NCBI GenBank assembly: GCA_963828465.1 | Contig: CAWHEU010000021.1 | Coordinates: 1 to 64,000 of the forward strand | DNA length: 64,000 bases | DNA from: an uncultured Acidobacteriota bacterium | GTDB taxonomy: Bacteria > Actinomycetota > Acidimicrobiia > Spongiisociales > ZC4RG35 | Direction: 5' to 3' | In this document: piece by piece, positions 38,536 through 49,218 of the stretch | Position numbering within the stretch: position 1 is the first letter of the stretch | Layout of the letters: every line of letters starts with the position of its first letter | Translations under genes and position numbers: made by a program | Notes under the pieces: generated by a model | Seen by the model: only the letters and a program-made list of their open reading frames with translations | Database searches by the model: none | What the model was told of the DNA's origin: nothing

Positions 38536-41269
<2,734 letters not shown>

Positions 41270-43355: not shown

Positions 43356-43946
43356 ATGCTATGGCTGGCCATTGTCTTGTTCATCGCCTTGGCCATGGCG
43401 GTGCTGCGCGGGGGCCGTCTGACCAACCTGGGCGACATCGAGCTTCGGGCTTGGTGGCTCTTGCTGGTTGCCCTGGGCCTGCAGGTGGCGACCATCTGGC
43501 TGCCGGACTCGGATTGGGCAGAGGGTCTCGGGCTGGCCATGGTGCTGACCTCCTACGGGCTCCTCATGGCCCTGGTGGTGCTCAATCGCAACCGGACCGG
43601 GATGTGGCTCGCCGGTCTCGGGGTTCTGATGAACTTCACGGTGATCGCCGTCAACGGCGGGATGCCGGTGCTCGCCGAGGCGGCCGAGGTGGCTAGCGGG
43701 TTCACAGTCACCGTGCCTGATCTGTCCGGGTCGTTCAAGCACGTGATTCTCGACTCCGGTTCGAATCTCACCGCACTCGCCGATGTCATACCGCTCCGGA
43801 TAGGAGGGATCGGCCAGGTGATCAGCCTTGGTGATGTCTTCCTGGCGGTCGGCCTAGGCCGATTCCTGGAGCACGAGTTGCGCCGGCCACGTCGCTACTT
43901 CAAGCGCGGCGCCCACGCCCAGCCCGGGTCGGCGAGCAAGACCTGA
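43356..43946 (+). CDS. DUF5317 family membrane protein
   Basis: LRGGRL..L, LMNFTVIAVNGGMPV, LADVIP, VISLGDVFL. Confidence 0.8.
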   Translation: MLWLAIVLFIALAMAVLRGGRLTNLGDIELRAWWLLLVALGLQVATIWLPDSDWAEGLGLAMVLTSYGLLMALVVLNRNRTGMWLAGLGVLMNFTVIAVNGGMPVLAEAAEVASGFTVTVPDLSGSFKHVILDSGSNLTALADVIPLRIGGIGQVISLGDVFLAVGLGRFLEHELRRPRRYFKRGAHAQPGSASKT

Positions 43947-43958
43947 CCGATCAATTGG

Positions 43959-45203
43959 TCAGGTGCGGACGGGGGTCAGCACCCCCCGGCTCTCCAGCAG
44001 CCGGCGAAGGGATGCCACGACCTCCGGGTCGTAGTCGTAGGCGGCGCCGGTGTGGAGGACCTCTAGGGCCTGCAGGGGGGAGAGCCCCTCGAGATGCACC
44101 TGCCAGTCATAAGCGGCGGCGACCTTGATTATCCGCGACACGATCGAGACATCCGGGTCGGTTTGCTCGCCCGGCTTGCGATAGGGCTCGTACTGATGGC
44201 GCACGTGGGTCGCCACTCGGCTCAAGTACGGCGACTCGGCGATGATCTCCGAGCTCCAGCGTGCGAGGTCGGTATCGCTGTAACCCATTCGCAGTATCTG
44301 CGGCTCGTTGAGGCTGACGCGCCCGATGTCGTGCATCAGCCCGGCGTACTCCACGTCTTCCACCTGGACCGGGCCTAGCCCGATCTCCTTGGCGATGGCC
44401 GAGGCGAGCTCGGTGGTGCGGTCAGCGTGACCATCGACCCCGAGCCCGGAGACCTCGGGGATGCGAGCCAGCGCACGGATGGTCTGCTTGTAGGTCACCT
44501 TGGTCTGTTGGAACCGTTTGAAGGCGAGGTGGGCAAACGAGTAGGGAAGCAGGGCGATGGGGAGTGCCCACCAACCAATCGCCGGTAGTAGTTCGCCGAA
44601 CAGTGCACCCGTGAGAGCCAGTCCGAGGAAGACATTGAGATCGTGTATCAGGGAGCGGGCCAGATAGCTGCGGGACAGCTCACGCTTGCCCACGACGAGC
44701 ATGGAGCGGGCGAACACCTCGACCGCGATCCAGGCGAGGAGGGCCACGACGAACGGGACCAGGTCCGCCCAGCCTCCGTTCAACTCGGCAAACGGCCCCA
44801 CACGGAGGGCGGAGTACACGGTCGCATAGACGACATAACCGGCGAATCTCCGCACCAGAGTGGGCAGAAGGTCGGTGTGCTTCTCCCCACGTGAGTAACG
44901 GAGTGCCCAGACGATGGCAAGGCCCAGTCCATAAACGGCAATGCACCCGGCCAGGTCCACATCCTGTGTCGAGCCGAGCACGAAGGGCACGGCGGCAGCC
45001 ACCGCCAGACCCACCGTGAACCTGTTCCCCGTGTTGGAGGCCGCTACCCCGACCATCGAGGCCAGCACCAACGCCGTCACCGCAACCAGCAATTTGATCG
45101 GATCGGTCACAGCAATGGTGGCCGCATAGAGACCAACCCCGGCGATAACGAGGACATACAGCCAGGAGACGATGGAGAGGGCGCGTGGGCTCCAGCTAGC
45201 CAC
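43959..45203 (-). CDS. Multi-TM protein with degenerate HD-GYP-like domain
   Basis: About 7 TMs; GH..R and MHDIG retained, HHE..DG.GYP replaced by RHQYEPY; YDPEVV. Confidence 0.82.
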   Translation of the reverse strand: MASWSPRALSIVSWLYVLVIAGVGLYAATIAVTDPIKLLVAVTALVLASMVGVAASNTGNRFTVGLAVAAAVPFVLGSTQDVDLAGCIAVYGLGLAIVWALRYSRGEKHTDLLPTLVRRFAGYVVYATVYSALRVGPFAELNGGWADLVPFVVALLAWIAVEVFARSMLVVGKRELSRSYLARSLIHDLNVFLGLALTGALFGELLPAIGWWALPIALLPYSFAHLAFKRFQQTKVTYKQTIRALARIPEVSGLGVDGHADRTTELASAIAKEIGLGPVQVEDVEYAGLMHDIGRVSLNEPQILRMGYSDTDLARWSSEIIAESPYLSRVATHVRHQYEPYRKPGEQTDPDVSIVSRIIKVAAAYDWQVHLEGLSPLQALEVLHTGAAYDYDPEVVASLRRLLESRGVLTPVRT

Positions 45204-46587
45204 GAAGGGTCAACTCCGGCTCTTCGGCGAGACGACGGGCCATCTCCTCGTCGTTCACATGCGGGGCGCCCCAGCGACGACCGGTCTTGTTGAGCGCTCG
45301 CTCGAAAGCGTCGACCACCTCCGGGTGGAACTGGGCGCCAGAGTTGCGCCTCAACTCGGATATGGCGTATTGCTGTGAGAGTGCCATCCGATAGGACCGG
45401 GCCGAGGTCATCGCGTCGAATGCGTCGGCCGCGGCGACGATGCAAGCCTCGATCCGGGGAGGCTCACCCTGGCTGTGCCCGCTGCCGCCGTATCCACTCC
45501 CGTCGAAATTGCTGTGGTGGCCGGAGGCGATCTCGACCATGGGCTGGAGGAAGTCCACTTCGGCGAGGATCTCTTCGACGAGTTGAGCGTGGGCCTTCAT
45601 CTCGGCGTACTCGTCCTCGTCGAGCCGGCCCCTTTTCCGGATGAGCTCGGTGGGGACGGCCAGTTTGCCCAGATCGTGGATCAGGGCCGACCAGCGGAGA
45701 GTCTCGAGCTGGGTCCCACTGAAGCCCATCTCCTCGCCGATCATCTGTGAGAAGAACGCCACCCTTTCCGTGTGCCCTCTGGTGTACATGTCCTTGGCCT
45801 CGAGCGTCTTGACGAATCCGCGAATCGACCCGATGTGCGAATCACGCAATTGCGAGTAGGCGTAGAGGGACATGTGGCCAATGGCGTAGACGCCTACGAT
45901 GAAAACGATGATCGCTTCGCCGTCGGCGATGAGAAAAGCTGCGCCGATGAGCCCGCCGATGAGGCCCATGGCTACCTGACCGACAAACAGAGTCGGCATC
46001 TGGGACCAGGGCTCGAGATTGTCCCGGCCGAAAACGACCTTCACCGCATATCGAACCAGAACCGTCTGCACCGTGGCGTAGGCCAGGGCCGCGACCGCCG
46101 ACACGACCAGCACCCTGATCAGAGACCCGGCAGTGTCCGGGACGCCTTCGAGATATGTGTCGAGGATGAGGCCGCACACGGCGCCGGCAGTGACGATCTG
46201 CCCGAAGTTGGCCATCGGCTGGAACCAGCGCTTCTCTTTGAAGTCGAGCGGGGTGAACAGGGCGAGAGCACCCATCAGCGCCAGACCGAACATCGCGTCG
46301 GAATCGGGACGCATGGCCAGGATCACCCCGGCGCTCATCGCCACCATCACAGAGGCGGACTGCAGCATGCGATCGTTGACCTCGACCGCGAAGAACTCGA
46401 GCAGGACGAAGAGGACGGCGAATGGGGCCCAATACGCCCAGACCGGCATCTCGGAGTAGAAGAACGACCCGACGAGGGCGGCCAGACCCGCCAGCGAGTA
46501 GGGCACAGCGATCTTCAACCGGCGCTGCACCGTGGGTCGGAGACGACCGAACCATCCCCGCAACGGTTTTTTCCTACCAAGCCTCAT
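45196..46587 (-). CDS. Multi-TM HD-GYP cyclic-dinucleotide phosphodiesterase
   Basis: About 7-8 TMs; EAKDMYTRGHTERV, IHDLGK, HHSNFDGSGYG, ADAFDAMTSARSYR, GAQFHP. Confidence 0.9.
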   Translation of the reverse strand: MRLGRKKPLRGWFGRLRPTVQRRLKIAVPYSLAGLAALVGSFFYSEMPVWAYWAPFAVLFVLLEFFAVEVNDRMLQSASVMVAMSAGVILAMRPDSDAMFGLALMGALALFTPLDFKEKRWFQPMANFGQIVTAGAVCGLILDTYLEGVPDTAGSLIRVLVVSAVAALAYATVQTVLVRYAVKVVFGRDNLEPWSQMPTLFVGQVAMGLIGGLIGAAFLIADGEAIIVFIVGVYAIGHMSLYAYSQLRDSHIGSIRGFVKTLEAKDMYTRGHTERVAFFSQMIGEEMGFSGTQLETLRWSALIHDLGKLAVPTELIRKRGRLDEDEYAEMKAHAQLVEEILAEVDFLQPMVEIASGHHSNFDGSGYGGSGHSQGEPPRIEACIVAAADAFDAMTSARSYRMALSQQYAISELRRNSGAQFHPEVVDAFERALNKTGRRWGAPHVNDEEMARRLAEEPELTLRG

Positions 46588-46636
46588 TGAGCCCCTCGAC
46601 GACATGTGTGACCGTTTGGTGAGCCGGCGTCGGTTA

Positions 46637-46714
46637 TCAGCCGATCCGGGTGCCGGCGAGCACTAACTCCAGGCTCGCGACACATCTGTGATTACGGGCC
46701 AGAAATGCCTTCAT
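46637..46714 (-). CDS. Putative 25-aa peptide MKAFLARNHRCVASLELVLAGTRIG (absent from the ORF track)
   Basis: AGGTGA SD 9 nt before ATG; tandem TGA-TAA stops; lies between the promoter and the HD-GYP gene. Confidence 0.5.
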   Translation of the reverse strand: MKAFLARNHRCVASLELVLAGTRIG

Positions 46715-46839
46715 CAAGAACGCTCACCTGTTGGTGCCGTATTTCACCGGCGTTGTGTGCCGGTGTTGACGATCCGCTCCGCTGGGGTTGATGGGCGTCC
46801 AGTACAAGGCCGACGTCTGACGCCGGACTCACCGCTTTT

Positions 46840-46880
46840 CCCCGGCAAGTCTTGACGGGGAACCTTTAACATGTCAAAGG
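46840..46880 (-). promoter_or_regulatory. Sigma-70-type promoter for the peptide/HD-GYP transcript, overlapped by two palindromes
   Basis: Minus-strand TTGACA(46877-46872)-N18-AAGACT; palindromes CCCCGGCAAGTCTTGACGGGG and CCTTTAACATGTCAAAGG. Confidence 0.5.
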
Positions 46881-47055
46881 CCCCTGACTTCGCCCGCCAT
46901 TGGCCAGGCAGACGGGTCAGAGACCTCGGCTGCCCCACGTTTCCAATAATGCCTTCCAGCCCGCCGCAATCTAGAGCCTCTCGGTACCTTGAACAAGGGG
47001 AAATGCGGCGTGTTATCCCGATAGACCACTCCGGTTGGCTGTACGCTGGGAGGTC

Positions 47056-47676
47056 ATGGACCTAATCGCGCTCCAGGACAAGATCTGTCGCATCGACGGC
47101 GTCGAGGCGGCGAGGATCGTCGCCGGCAACGGCCATATCGAGGAAATACATGTCCTGGCCCGCCGAAACAAGCCGCCCAAGCAGGTCGTGAGAGACGTGC
47201 AGTCCCTGAGCCAGGCGCTGTTTGGCGAGGAGATCGACCGCCGGGTGGTCTCGGTCGTGCAGCTCGCCGACTCCGATCTCGATATGGGATTTCGTCCGGC
47301 GCTGGTCGACGTCAGTGAGACCCTCGACGGGTCCCGCGCAGTTGTTTCGGTGACATTGCGGTGGCAGAACGAGGTCTTCACCGGCTCGTCGAAGGGCGCC
47401 GCCGCGGTGACCACCCGATCTCGTCAGATCGCCGAGGCCACGCTCGAGGCCATCCGCCAGGCCATCCATCAGGAGGCGGCCCTCGCCGTCTCGTCGATGG
47501 ATATACCCGTGTTGGGGAGCCGCAAGGTGGCGGTGGCACAAATAGTCGTGGTCACCGAGGCGACCGAGCGACACCTCATCGGGTGCGCCTATGTCGAGGA
47601 CGAAGAATCGAGAGCGGTGGTCCGCTCAGTCCTCGATGCCCTCAATCGGGTGCTTCCCGACCTCAAGATATCCTGA
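47056..47676 (+). CDS. Conserved hypothetical protein (EEIHVL..PKQVVRDVQS motif; C-terminus resembles the LeuA regulatory fold)
   Basis: GGGAGG RBS; IEEIHVLA, PKQVVRDVQS, IDRRVVSVVQ, IAEATLEAI, AVVRSVLDALNR. Confidence 0.75.
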   Translation: MDLIALQDKICRIDGVEAARIVAGNGHIEEIHVLARRNKPPKQVVRDVQSLSQALFGEEIDRRVVSVVQLADSDLDMGFRPALVDVSETLDGSRAVVSVTLRWQNEVFTGSSKGAAAVTTRSRQIAEATLEAIRQAIHQEAALAVSSMDIPVLGSRKVAVAQIVVVTEATERHLIGCAYVEDEESRAVVRSVLDALNRVLPDLKIS

Positions 47677-49218
47677 CGCACGCGGTCTCCACCCCACATC
47701 ATTACTCCACGGATGCGGCCAAACGTGTGCTGATCGCTGGGGGCAATGCGGTGGACGCGGCGATCGCAGCCACCGCTACCCAGGGGGTCGTCGCACCGGA
47801 GACCTGCGGGGTCGGGGGTGATCTCTTCGCCATGGTTCACAGGCCGGGATGGGATGAGCCCCGTGCGCTCAATGCCTCCGGACGCGCCGGGTCCCATGCC
47901 GACCCCGGCCCCGTTCGGGACGTCAGGGTCATCCCGCGCGACCACCCGCTCTCCGTCACAGTGCCCGGTTGTGTCGACGGTTGGTCGGTCCTTTCTTCTG
48001 AGCTCGGCCGTCTCGCACTGAGTGAATGCGTCGCCCCGGCCATCGAGCTACGCCAGCGAGGGCTTCGAGGTCTCCACCGAGCAGGCTGGCGCCTTTCTCG
48101 ATCAGGCATCCTTCTACGCCGGGCAACGGGCGGTCCGAGAGTTCTATCCGGGTGGGGCAGCGGTCGTGCGAGGTGATGTCGTCAAGCGACCTGATCTCGC
48201 GGCCACTCTCCACGCTGTCGGCGAGCGAGGGCGAGATGCCTTCTATCTCGGGGATCCGGCCCAGGACATCGTCGAGGAATTGGGTGGCCTCATAACACAC
48301 GGCGACCTGGCCCGATCCCACGCCGACTGGGTGAGCCCGATCTCATGTGCGGTCGGGGACATGTTTGCCTGGACCCTCCCCCCCAACTCACAGGGCTATC
48401 TCGGCCCTGCCACGCTCGCGGTGTTCGAGATGCTGGGACCACCTTCGGACCCGGCCGACCCGGACTGGTGGCATCTGCTGATCGAGGCGTTTCGCTCGAT
48501 GGCCTGGGAGAGAGACGATCTCGTCGCCGATCCCGACCACGCACCCCTTCCCGGGCACCTCCTCCTCGATCCTGCCCGTTTGGGCCGAGCCGCCGACACG
48601 GTCGACCGAGCCGCAACGGGAGTCTGGCCCAGGAGAATGGGGTCCGAGTCGAGCACGGCGTACATGTGCATCGTCGACGACGAGGGCTTGGCCGTGTCCA
48701 TCATCCAGTCGAACTTCGAAGGGACAGGCTCCGCATTCGGCGCCGGCACGAGTGGGTTCTTGCTCCACAACCGGGGCAGCGGCTTCTCCCTGACTCCGGG
48801 ACATCCGAACGAGCTGCAGCCCGGGAAGCGCCCGCTGCACACCCTCTCTCCCACCCTCTGGACCCGCGATCGGGAGCCGACATGGGTGATCGGGACCCGA
48901 GGCGGCTCGGTGCAGCCTCAACTCGTGGCTCAGGTTGCGGCACGAGCCATCCTCGCCGGGAAGACCATCGAGGAGGCTCAGACCGCGCCGAGATGGGTGG
49001 TCCGGGAGTTCGGACCGTTCTCCGAGGCGCGTCTCCTGGTGGAGCCCGGTATCGCCGGGGCCACGCTCTCCAACCTGCGGTCGCGCGGGCACGTCATCGA
49101 AGAAGTGCCCGACCGCCAACCCGGTTGGGGGCCGGTGTCCATGATCAAAATCGACGGCAAGGACCGCACGACCCACCCGGACCCCCGCGTCGACACCACC
49201 AGCGCGATCGTTTTCTGA
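47673..49218 (+). CDS. ggt: Gamma-glutamyltransferase family protein; frameshift near 48050, start uncertain
   Basis: GGNAVDAAIA, GVGGDLF, SVTVPG, LPPNSQG, S-T nucleophile (STAYMC), LHNRG, KRPLHTL. Confidence 0.85.

Follow-up and report, generated by a model that had tools for sequence, protein, structure and literature searches.

A short open reading frame (ORF) lies on the minus strand directly upstream of two HD-GYP-family genes in a 64,000-nucleotide (nt) stretch of DNA, hereafter the window, which comprises positions 1 to 64,000 of contig CAWHEU010000021.1 (assembly GCA_963828465.1) from an uncultured bacterium that GTDB places in the Acidimicrobiia. We consider it reasonably probable that this 25-codon frame is a translated leader ORF situated inside a structured 5' leader RNA of ~375 nt, and that it acts in cis as a translation-driven switch of the HD-GYP operon. 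Comparison with relatives indicates that the frame is the local copy of a putative short upstream ORF (uORF) kept by many Acidimicrobiia before a pair of predicted cyclic di-GMP (c-di-GMP) phosphodiesterase genes. The larger finding is the leader RNA itself, in which the uORF stop codon lies in one strand of a covarying long-range helix and the ribosome-binding sequence of the uORF lies in another helix.

The upstream reading frame at the window locus and in relatives

On the minus strand of the window, the Shine-Dalgarno (SD) sequence AGGTGA (46729–46724) is followed by a 9-nt spacer (GCGTTCTTG), an ATG at 46714–46712, and a frame of 25 codons reading MKAFLARNHRCVASLELVLAGTRIG that closes with TGA at 46639–46637, so that the uORF occupies 46637–46714. 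A second stop codon, TAA, comes immediately after (46636–46634), and 49 nt lie between the uORF stop and the start codon of the first HD-GYP gene, ATG 46587. This is the arrangement given in the initial annotation, which had been made from the sequence alone (AGGTGA, 9 nt, ATG, 25 codons, TGA TAA, about 50 base pairs (bp) before the HD-GYP gene), with the gap now set at 49 nt. The ORF listing gives the same frame as 46637–46717, counting from a TTG one codon upstream of the ATG.

Relatives were sought with an alignment of the first HD-GYP protein (HD-GYP1) and 14 homologues, scanned against one genome per GTDB species; 115 relatives were found and 80 loci were kept, labelled Acidimicrobiia or Actinomycetota with a few carrying other labels. 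Intergenic distance was ~470 nt across these loci, and the gap from the uORF stop to the HD-GYP gene was 34–60 nt. Seventy leaders, the window included, could be placed in one alignment (A2) spanning the -10 box through the HD-GYP start codon, and counts out of 70 below refer to this alignment; Fisher and covariation statistics on the 70 leaders ignore phylogenetic relatedness.

An ATG-started ORF of 22–31 codons ending at a common stop was found in 53 of the 70 leaders. The aligned start codon is ATG in 61 leaders and GTG in four, the distance from the SD to the uORF ATG is 8–18 nt, and the SD itself reads AGGTGAGCG or AGGTGGACG in 55 leaders, the remainder carrying close variants. A stop codon is present in all 70 leaders (TGA 63, TAG 5, TAA 2), preceded in every one of them by a Gly codon (GGC 64, GGT 5, GGG 1) and, before that, by ATC (70/70). 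The third-last codon specifies Arg or Lys in 69 leaders and does so in seven spellings (CGG, CGA, CGT, AGA, AGG, AAG, and AAA). The encoded peptides are of several types: a 29-amino-acid (aa) type, M[KR]xRLVRILAAAASLxALIAAGSAxx[RK]IG, in 31 loci; the 25-aa type of the window in 18 sequences; and further types of 26–27 aa that are basic and polar, such as MRVTRSKRREVTASWRHVATTNTKIG and MQARINGIRFATAHRRNSMRRGVRIG. Lengths differ between types by whole codons (25, 26, 27, 29), and the types have no residues in common beyond a few at the N-terminus and the final three. Within the window's peptide, the initial annotation had suspected that the NHRC stretch was distorted by indels, given the error rate of the assembly. 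This stretch is not an assembly artefact because two relatives (L001 and L026) encode exactly the same 25-aa peptide, and a third (L072) encodes one that differs by a single residue.

Taken alone, the uORF is not above chance: 108 ORFs of at least 20 aa overlap the 8 kb around it, in DNA of ~63% GC. On the comparative evidence, it is the conservation of SD, start, frame, and stop in relatives that lifts it above this background. That the frame is functionless, and owes its apparent conservation to neighbouring promoter or operator DNA, is a reading to which we give almost no credence; it would suit the abundance of ORFs and the location between divergent genes, where operators are expected, but conservation spans ~375 nt, and the reading is already contradicted by the compensatory changes with G.U pairs described below, which fit a minus-strand RNA only, and by codon-level selection in 31 species.

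That selection was read from pN and pS, the proportions of nonsynonymous and synonymous differences, as summed Nei-Gojobori estimates. For the 29-aa type (31 loci, 28 distinct sequences), pS was 0.415 and pN 0.120, a ratio of 0.29 vs 1.54 and 2.36 in the shifted frames, and mean pairwise differences at codon positions 1, 2, and 3 were 4.2, 3.0, and 10.3. HD-GYP1 in genomes with this type (29 of the 31) gave pS 0.570, pN 0.147, and pN/pS 0.26; the 29-aa peptide thus appears to be under purifying selection about as strong as that on the HD-GYP protein. For the window type (15 distinct sequences), pS was 0.181 and pN 0.205, a ratio of 1.13, with 1.31 and 0.73 in the shifted frames, while HD-GYP1 in 17 of the 18 genomes gave pS 0.525, pN 0.086, and pN/pS 0.16. 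Synonymous sites of the window-type uORF are thus ~3 times more conserved than those of the neighbouring gene (pS 0.18 vs 0.53), an unusual degree of conservation that points to constraint on the RNA in this clade. The initial annotation had suggested a test in orthologues, namely whether the DNA before their HD-GYP genes contains a short, conserved ORF whose ratio of nonsynonymous to synonymous substitution rates (dN/dS) is below 1; such an ORF was found for the family, in the 53 leaders above and with the low ratio of the 29-aa type, but the window's own 25-aa type did not behave in this way. Conservation at the nucleotide or RNA level only, which the same annotation had named as evidence against a peptide, applies in part to the window's type, given its low pS, and not to the 29-aa type.

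Two functions had been proposed initially for the product, a propeptide releasing a short C-terminal signal and a membrane-embedded regulator of the phosphodiesterase. A trans-acting small protein of this kind, whether a membrane or signal-peptide-like product acting on the HD-GYP membrane domains or a precursor processed to a short C-terminal signal, seems to us improbable. The 29-aa type would lend itself to such a role, having a basic N-terminus (M-K/R-x-R-L-V-R) followed by a hydrophobic, Ala-rich stretch of ~20 residues and being conserved like the HD-GYP protein; long membrane N-terminal halves are seen by eye in both HD-GYP proteins; and in a database of 5.8 billion clusters, queried with a 44-aa stretch of the same open frame as the 29-aa peptide, five 'hypothetical protein' calls, the only ones, matched this type in the sister clade. 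None of five exact uORF peptides was present in a collection of 15 billion proteins, the window's own peptide included among those absent there. Either role presupposes conservation of the peptide, which the window type lacks, as it lacks the conserved hydrophobic segment of a small membrane protein that by eye is present in the 29-aa type. The core of the window-type peptide, VASLELVLAG, had been described as mostly hydrophobic; we judged the peptide by eye not to be so, with charged and polar residues at the variable codons. The other two peptide types are basic and polar, and residues shared only at the two ends of the peptide suit a role of the nascent chain or of translation better than one of a folded or membrane-embedded product.

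The lipobox consensus is L-[AS]-[GA]-C, with Cys at position +1. The initial remark that the window's LAG motif has no Cys after it holds, as the peptide reads LAG-T, which also speaks against a trans-acting product, and the LAG codons are stem nucleotides of the RNA. We also considered an alanine-sensing attenuator and rejected it, only one peptide type being rich in Ala.

Conserved secondary structure of the leader RNA

Conservation in the 70 leaders is arranged in blocks across ~375 nt. Upstream of these, a putative promoter on the minus strand (46968–46996) consists of a -35 hexamer, TTGTTC (46996–46991), a 17-nt spacer, and a -10 hexamer, TAGATT (46973–46968). TAGATT occurs in 70 of 70 leaders and TTGTnn in 69, and the spacer is exactly 17 nt in all 70 although its sequence is variable. 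Transcription likely starts near 46961 because of these conserved hexamers, which would give a 5' leader RNA of ~374 nt on the minus strand (46588–46961), extending to the base before the HD-GYP start.

Helices were proposed from stacked complementary columns together with per-sequence duplex folding, and were then tested on A2. Over 54 pairs in nine helices, 89.1% of the 3600 cells were paired, vs 27.6–42.8% when the 3' partners were slid; 33 of the 54 pairs had changed on both sides, vs 17–23 when slid; and 173 cells held both-side changes, vs 31–71. None of 500 shuffles reached the real alignment in any of five measures, relatedness again being ignored. We take this comparative test to show that the leader has a conserved secondary structure maintained by compensatory changes, with at least nine covarying helices, and the RNA would be read from the minus strand because G.U pairs are frequent.

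The C, B2, and B1 helices together make an interrupted long-range helix of ~21 bp that closes a 165-nt domain in which the uORF is held. The 3' strand (46618–46642, minus strand) runs from C, GGCUGAU, through B2, GACGCCGG, to B1, CUCACC, and the 5' strand (46808–46833, minus strand) contains B1, GGUGAG, then B2, CCGGCGUC, an internal loop, and C, GUCGGCC. Helix C forms between GUCGGCC (46814–46808) and GGCUGAU, which comprises the Gly codon of the uORF, its stop codon, and one more base; past an internal loop of 5 by 5 nt, CCGGCGUC and GGUGAG (46833–46819) are matched by GACGCCGG and CUCACC. This C/B2/B1 duplex was predicted in 67 of 67 distinct strand pairs from the 70 leaders, at -27.5 to -46.5 kcal/mol. 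In the A2 test, 92–96% of its cells were paired and 12 of its 21 pairs had changed on both sides, and distant clades carry whole-helix replacements (GGGCAAG/CUUGCCC and GGUAAA/UUUACC). A pairing of CUCACC with the uORF SD in place of B1 would be possible and was rejected, no compensatory change supporting it.

The stop codon itself takes part in this covariation. Where its second base is A, it faces U in seven of seven leaders, vs 13 of 63 for TGA (Fisher 6.5e-5, phylogeny uncorrected). The T of the stop forms a G.U pair in 57 sequences and an A-U pair in seven, and never G-C; this base never becomes C although a stronger pair would be possible, and therefore the stop appears to be kept beyond the needs of pairing.

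The second point of overlap between uORF and structure is helix D. The SD region of the uORF (AGGUGAGCGUUC, 46718–46729, minus strand) doubles as the 3' strand of this helix, in which the SD, GGUGAGCGUUC, pairs with GGACGC-C-CAUC at 46800–46790; this anti-SD strand, GGACGCCCAUC (46790–46800, minus strand), is the 5' strand of the helix. The SD:anti-SD duplex was predicted in nearly all leaders, with free energies of -5.9 to -17.5 kcal/mol, and 88.1% of its cells were paired, with both-side changes in four of 10 pairs. Inside helix D lie hairpin P and an invariant stretch, AGCGGAGCGGA, which together with GGCGGGCGAAGUCAGGGG exemplifies the invariant unpaired nucleotides of the leader. Hairpin P (46745–46765, minus strand; CACCGGC-ACACAAC-GCCGGUG) has a conserved loop and both-side changes in seven of seven pairs, including a variant, CGTTGTC...GACAACG, in L062. 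An alternative pairing of the uORF SD with AUCGGCU, which came from RNAalifold on the whole alignment, contains a G-G mismatch and has no both-side changes, and was not adopted.

Two hairpins lie farther 5'. The one in the 5' part of the leader, hairpin H1 (46907–46934, minus strand; GGCAG...CUGCC around an inner stem of GGUC/GACC), had 96.2% of cells paired and both-side changes in four of five pairs, with GC replaced by AU in 21 sequences. Hairpin H3 (46838–46862, minus strand; UUCCCCG...CGGGGAA) likewise had both-side changes in four of five pairs and reads CCGTCGA...TCGACGG in L048. Other candidates were not retained. Helix A, in which GACAUGU (46875–46869) would pair with ACAUGUC (46607–46601) just before the HD-GYP SD, and hairpin H2, CCUUU with AAAGG, are complementary in most leaders, have no both-side changes, and did no better than shuffles; whole clades lack the 3' partner of helix A. 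A naive ranking of covarying column pairs mostly picked up clade-level changes and was set aside, and RNAalifold on the whole 578-column alignment returned 31 pairs only.

Within the window-type uORF, a further hairpin is predicted at 46650–46683 (minus strand; GUGUCGCGAGC...GCUCGCCGGCAC), with the two most variable codons in its loop. RNAalifold on the 15 distinct window-type uORFs gave -16.46 kcal/mol, and by eye TGT to TAT co-occurs with ACC to GTA in three leaders (L004, L005, and L009). The conserved codons of this uORF type coincide with the stems of the internal hairpin and of the long-range helix, and this hairpin would therefore explain the conservation of the uORF sequence in the window's clade.

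A near-perfect 18-nt palindrome, CCTTTGACATGTTAAAGG, lies at 46863–46880 (minus strand) within an invariant block and holds a TTGACA hexamer. No covariation supports its folding into an RNA hairpin or its pairing with the ACAUGUC before the HD-GYP SD, and a protein might bind there. The window contains a single copy of the 18-nt invariant block, and a gapped-pattern search over the loci for more copies of the leader returned nothing, the pattern being too narrow.

Leader translation as a probable switch and its alternatives

Initiation on the uORF would need helix D to open, and a ribosome at the uORF stop would have to melt helix C and, by its footprint, helix B. Translation of the uORF and the closed fold would therefore be mutually exclusive, and this exclusion would make the uORF a translation-driven switch for the operon. 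Possible outputs are exposure of the HD-GYP start site, which lies 49 nt downstream, access for Rho, re-initiation, and mRNA stability. More speculatively, and by analogy with SecM and with peptides that block termination, the invariant [R/K]-I-G might delay release at the stop codon and keep the ribosome in place on the helix. No terminator-like site was found between the uORF and HD-GYP1, and when the 70 leaders were folded no alternative structure extended to the HD-GYP start site.

Several results weigh against a translated, switch-like uORF. When all 70 leaders were refolded with a ribosome footprint at the uORF stop blocked, the mean unpaired probability of the HD-GYP SD was 0.35 vs 0.33, and the same refolding produced no consistent shift in the accessibility of the HD-GYP AUG. 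The GGC-TGA at the end of the uORF is explained by helix C alone. The window-clade peptide does not appear to be under purifying selection, and its substitution pattern gives no sign of translation; if the uORF is translated in this clade, it would therefore be the act of translation, and not the product, that matters. Openness of the frame does not discriminate between frames in this GC-rich DNA, the segment over the uORF being free of stops in 56 of 70 leaders in frame +0, 56 in -1, 47 in -2, 41 in +2, 33 in -0, and five in +1. A consensus promoter scan of the window called no promoter, the promoter and transcription start above being deduced from conservation. The controls for covariation are uncorrected for phylogeny, and every relative is a metagenome-assembled genome. 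Finally, 17 of the 70 leaders are without an ATG-started ORF of the expected length that ends at the conserved stop. Among these exceptions are two GTG starts and one leader without a start codon (L003); in L014, L015, L023, and L071 a 19-codon ORF terminates at an earlier TAG (...VR*), in L052 and L062 the uORF ends at a duplicated, earlier stop, and all the others are out of frame. Some of the 17 may be assembly errors.

Two features of the exceptional leaders were seen along the way. In a clade close to that of the window (L003, L014, L015, L023, and L071), the leader is 2 nt shorter within the uORF, and the ATCGGCTGA block is intact in all five. The segment encoding ...[RK]IG and the stop is duplicated in tandem in L050, L052, L062, and L077, and in L052 and L062 the second copy adjoins helix B.

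Much of this would also be expected of a pure RNA element, a riboswitch-like or protein-binding cis RNA in which the window-clade ORF is untranslated and its SD, ATG, and stop are kept only as constrained nucleotides. The high pN/pS and low pS of the window clade, the coincidence of its invariant codons with stems of the internal hairpin and helices C and D, the covariation of stop-codon variants with their pairing partner, the broken or startless frames in the five close relatives just named, and the non-discriminating openness of the frame are all in its favour. We nevertheless regard this explanation as unlikely: the same aligned ORF in the sister type bears frame-specific purifying selection (0.29 vs 1.54 and 2.36), Arg or Lys is kept across switches of codon family, ATG is kept in 61 leaders at a fixed distance from the SD (8–18 nt), no leader has lost the stop even though sense codons that preserve pairing were available, and the types differ in length by whole codons.

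Building on the translation-driven switch, a more elaborate model can be sketched, which we put forward as speculative and rather doubtful. The leader would represent a new class of large leader RNA in Acidimicrobiia that senses in two layers: helix D, hairpin P, and the invariant loops would form a subdomain, riboswitch-like or protein-binding, that gates initiation on the uORF, and the [R/K]-I-G nascent peptide would hold the ribosome on the stop codon in the closing helix, reset the fold, and so set the output of two c-di-GMP phosphodiesterase-family proteins. The 206-aa protein encoded divergently across the leader could be a partner or a ligand sensor in such a scheme.

Leader ORFs of the TnaC, SpeFL, and PepNL type have 14–34 codons. 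They are short, conserved in their last residues, and hold the ribosome at the stop codon (PMC8450073, PMC8429421, PMC11890864, 10.1101/604074). The uORF resembles them as a short ORF in the 5' leader of an operon with conserved last residues, and differs from them in its C-terminus, which is [R/K]-I-G where theirs have Pro or Arg before the stop, in that stalling here is putative, in the placement of the stop codon within a covarying long-range helix, and in a leader that is far larger and more structured. A basic residue two positions before Gly also recalls the R163-A164-G165 module of SecM, in which Arg163 is essential and stands two residues before the P-site Gly (PMC10951299). The RAG-P module is absent here, R/K-x-G being followed by a stop in 70 of 70 leaders with no A-site Pro. 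Unlike the uORF product, SecM is a long secreted protein, encoded upstream of secA, whose arrest is relieved by pulling force. A chain of 25–29 aa would presumably still be inside the exit tunnel when termination occurs.

Some uORFs open a structure that sequesters a ribosome-binding site, as with mgtQ before mgtB in Salmonella, whose translation alters alternative stem-loops overlapping it and thereby controls the next gene (PMC8092293), and the ilvB-II motif of Corynebacterium was described as a 'structured RNA motif' and found to hold a conserved regulatory uORF (PMC10272879). Those two leaders are short, with two or three alternative hairpins, unlike the one described here, with at least nine helices, long invariant unpaired stretches, a 165-nt domain, and a 21-bp closing helix. 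Like riboswitches, this leader is an element of a 5' untranslated region in which helices covary, some unpaired nucleotides are invariant, and the helix closing a small subdomain sequesters an SD; unlike riboswitches, its closed domain contains an ORF, and it has no match in Rfam 15. A scan of 46400–47200 against that release, with E up to 10, returned only a chance hit to Actino-ugpB (16.6 bits, E = 3) inside the divergent gene. Literature searches turned up no publication that connects HD-GYP genes to such a uORF or leader RNA.

If correct, these results would add an uncharacterised and widely conserved regulatory RNA, present in 70 species-level genomes, to the poorly studied Acidimicrobiia of soil and freshwater. 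They would also provide a rare case in which selection on peptide and on RNA can be read on one ORF, with the balance shifting between sister clades, and a concrete handle on post-transcriptional control of HD-GYP-family c-di-GMP enzymes. A stop codon in a covarying helix is a clear and testable design. Where short ORFs are picked out by eye between distant genes, coding and structural models alike should be put to the test.

The HD-GYP operon and neighbouring genes

The first HD-GYP-family gene (45196–46587, minus strand) encodes a protein with a membrane N-terminal half and an HD_5 domain (PF13487, E 1.9e-27). An alternative in-frame ATG is present at 46605, and ATG 46587 is the likely start because most close homologues are 463–464 aa long. 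The start of the second gene (43959–45203, minus strand; HD_5, E 4.1e-10) overlaps the end of the first. The second gene was matched in 79 of the 80 loci and adjoins the first in 77 of these 79; the other two hits, at 24–25% identity, are the first gene itself. As the name says, a GYP motif is expected in the HD-GYP family. HD-GYP1 reads HHSNFDGSGYGG, with GYG in place of GYP, and HD-GYP2 keeps the HD motif with no recognisable GYP motif and a much weaker HD_5 match. Judged from these motifs, the pair may consist of one active and one degenerate enzyme.

Just upstream of the operon, an ATG inside the conserved CAACATGTC block (46601–46609, minus strand) opens, by eye, a mini-ORF of 6–7 codons in many loci, and the TGA of this mini-ORF shares bases with the HD-GYP start codon (ATGA). 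The window's copy of this ATG (46605) is instead in frame with HD-GYP1.

Convergent to the HD-GYP pair is a gene for a DUF5317 membrane protein (43356–43946, plus strand), syntenic in 70 of the 80 loci. Across the leader, a divergent gene for a 206-aa protein (47056–47676, plus strand) is syntenic in 69 of the 80. No Pfam or NCBIfam family matched the 206-aa protein, and its neighbours in the ESM Atlas are all named 'hypothetical'. Its AlphaFold2 model (pLDDT 84) was closest to the allosteric regulatory domain of LeuA/citramalate synthase (E 1e-5, TMq 0.42; 3f6g/3f6h, TMt 0.55–0.60) and, more weakly, to tandem double-stranded RNA-binding domains (E 2.5e-4 to 1e-3, TM 0.17–0.24). These model matches are only a lead, by which the protein might partner the leader by binding a ligand or RNA.

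Elsewhere in the window, two genes on the plus strand named by eye, an aconitase-like gene at 38536–41269 and a gamma-glutamyltransferase-like gene at 47361–49218, appear to be split into overlapping ORFs in different frames, a pattern that fits indel errors in the assembly.

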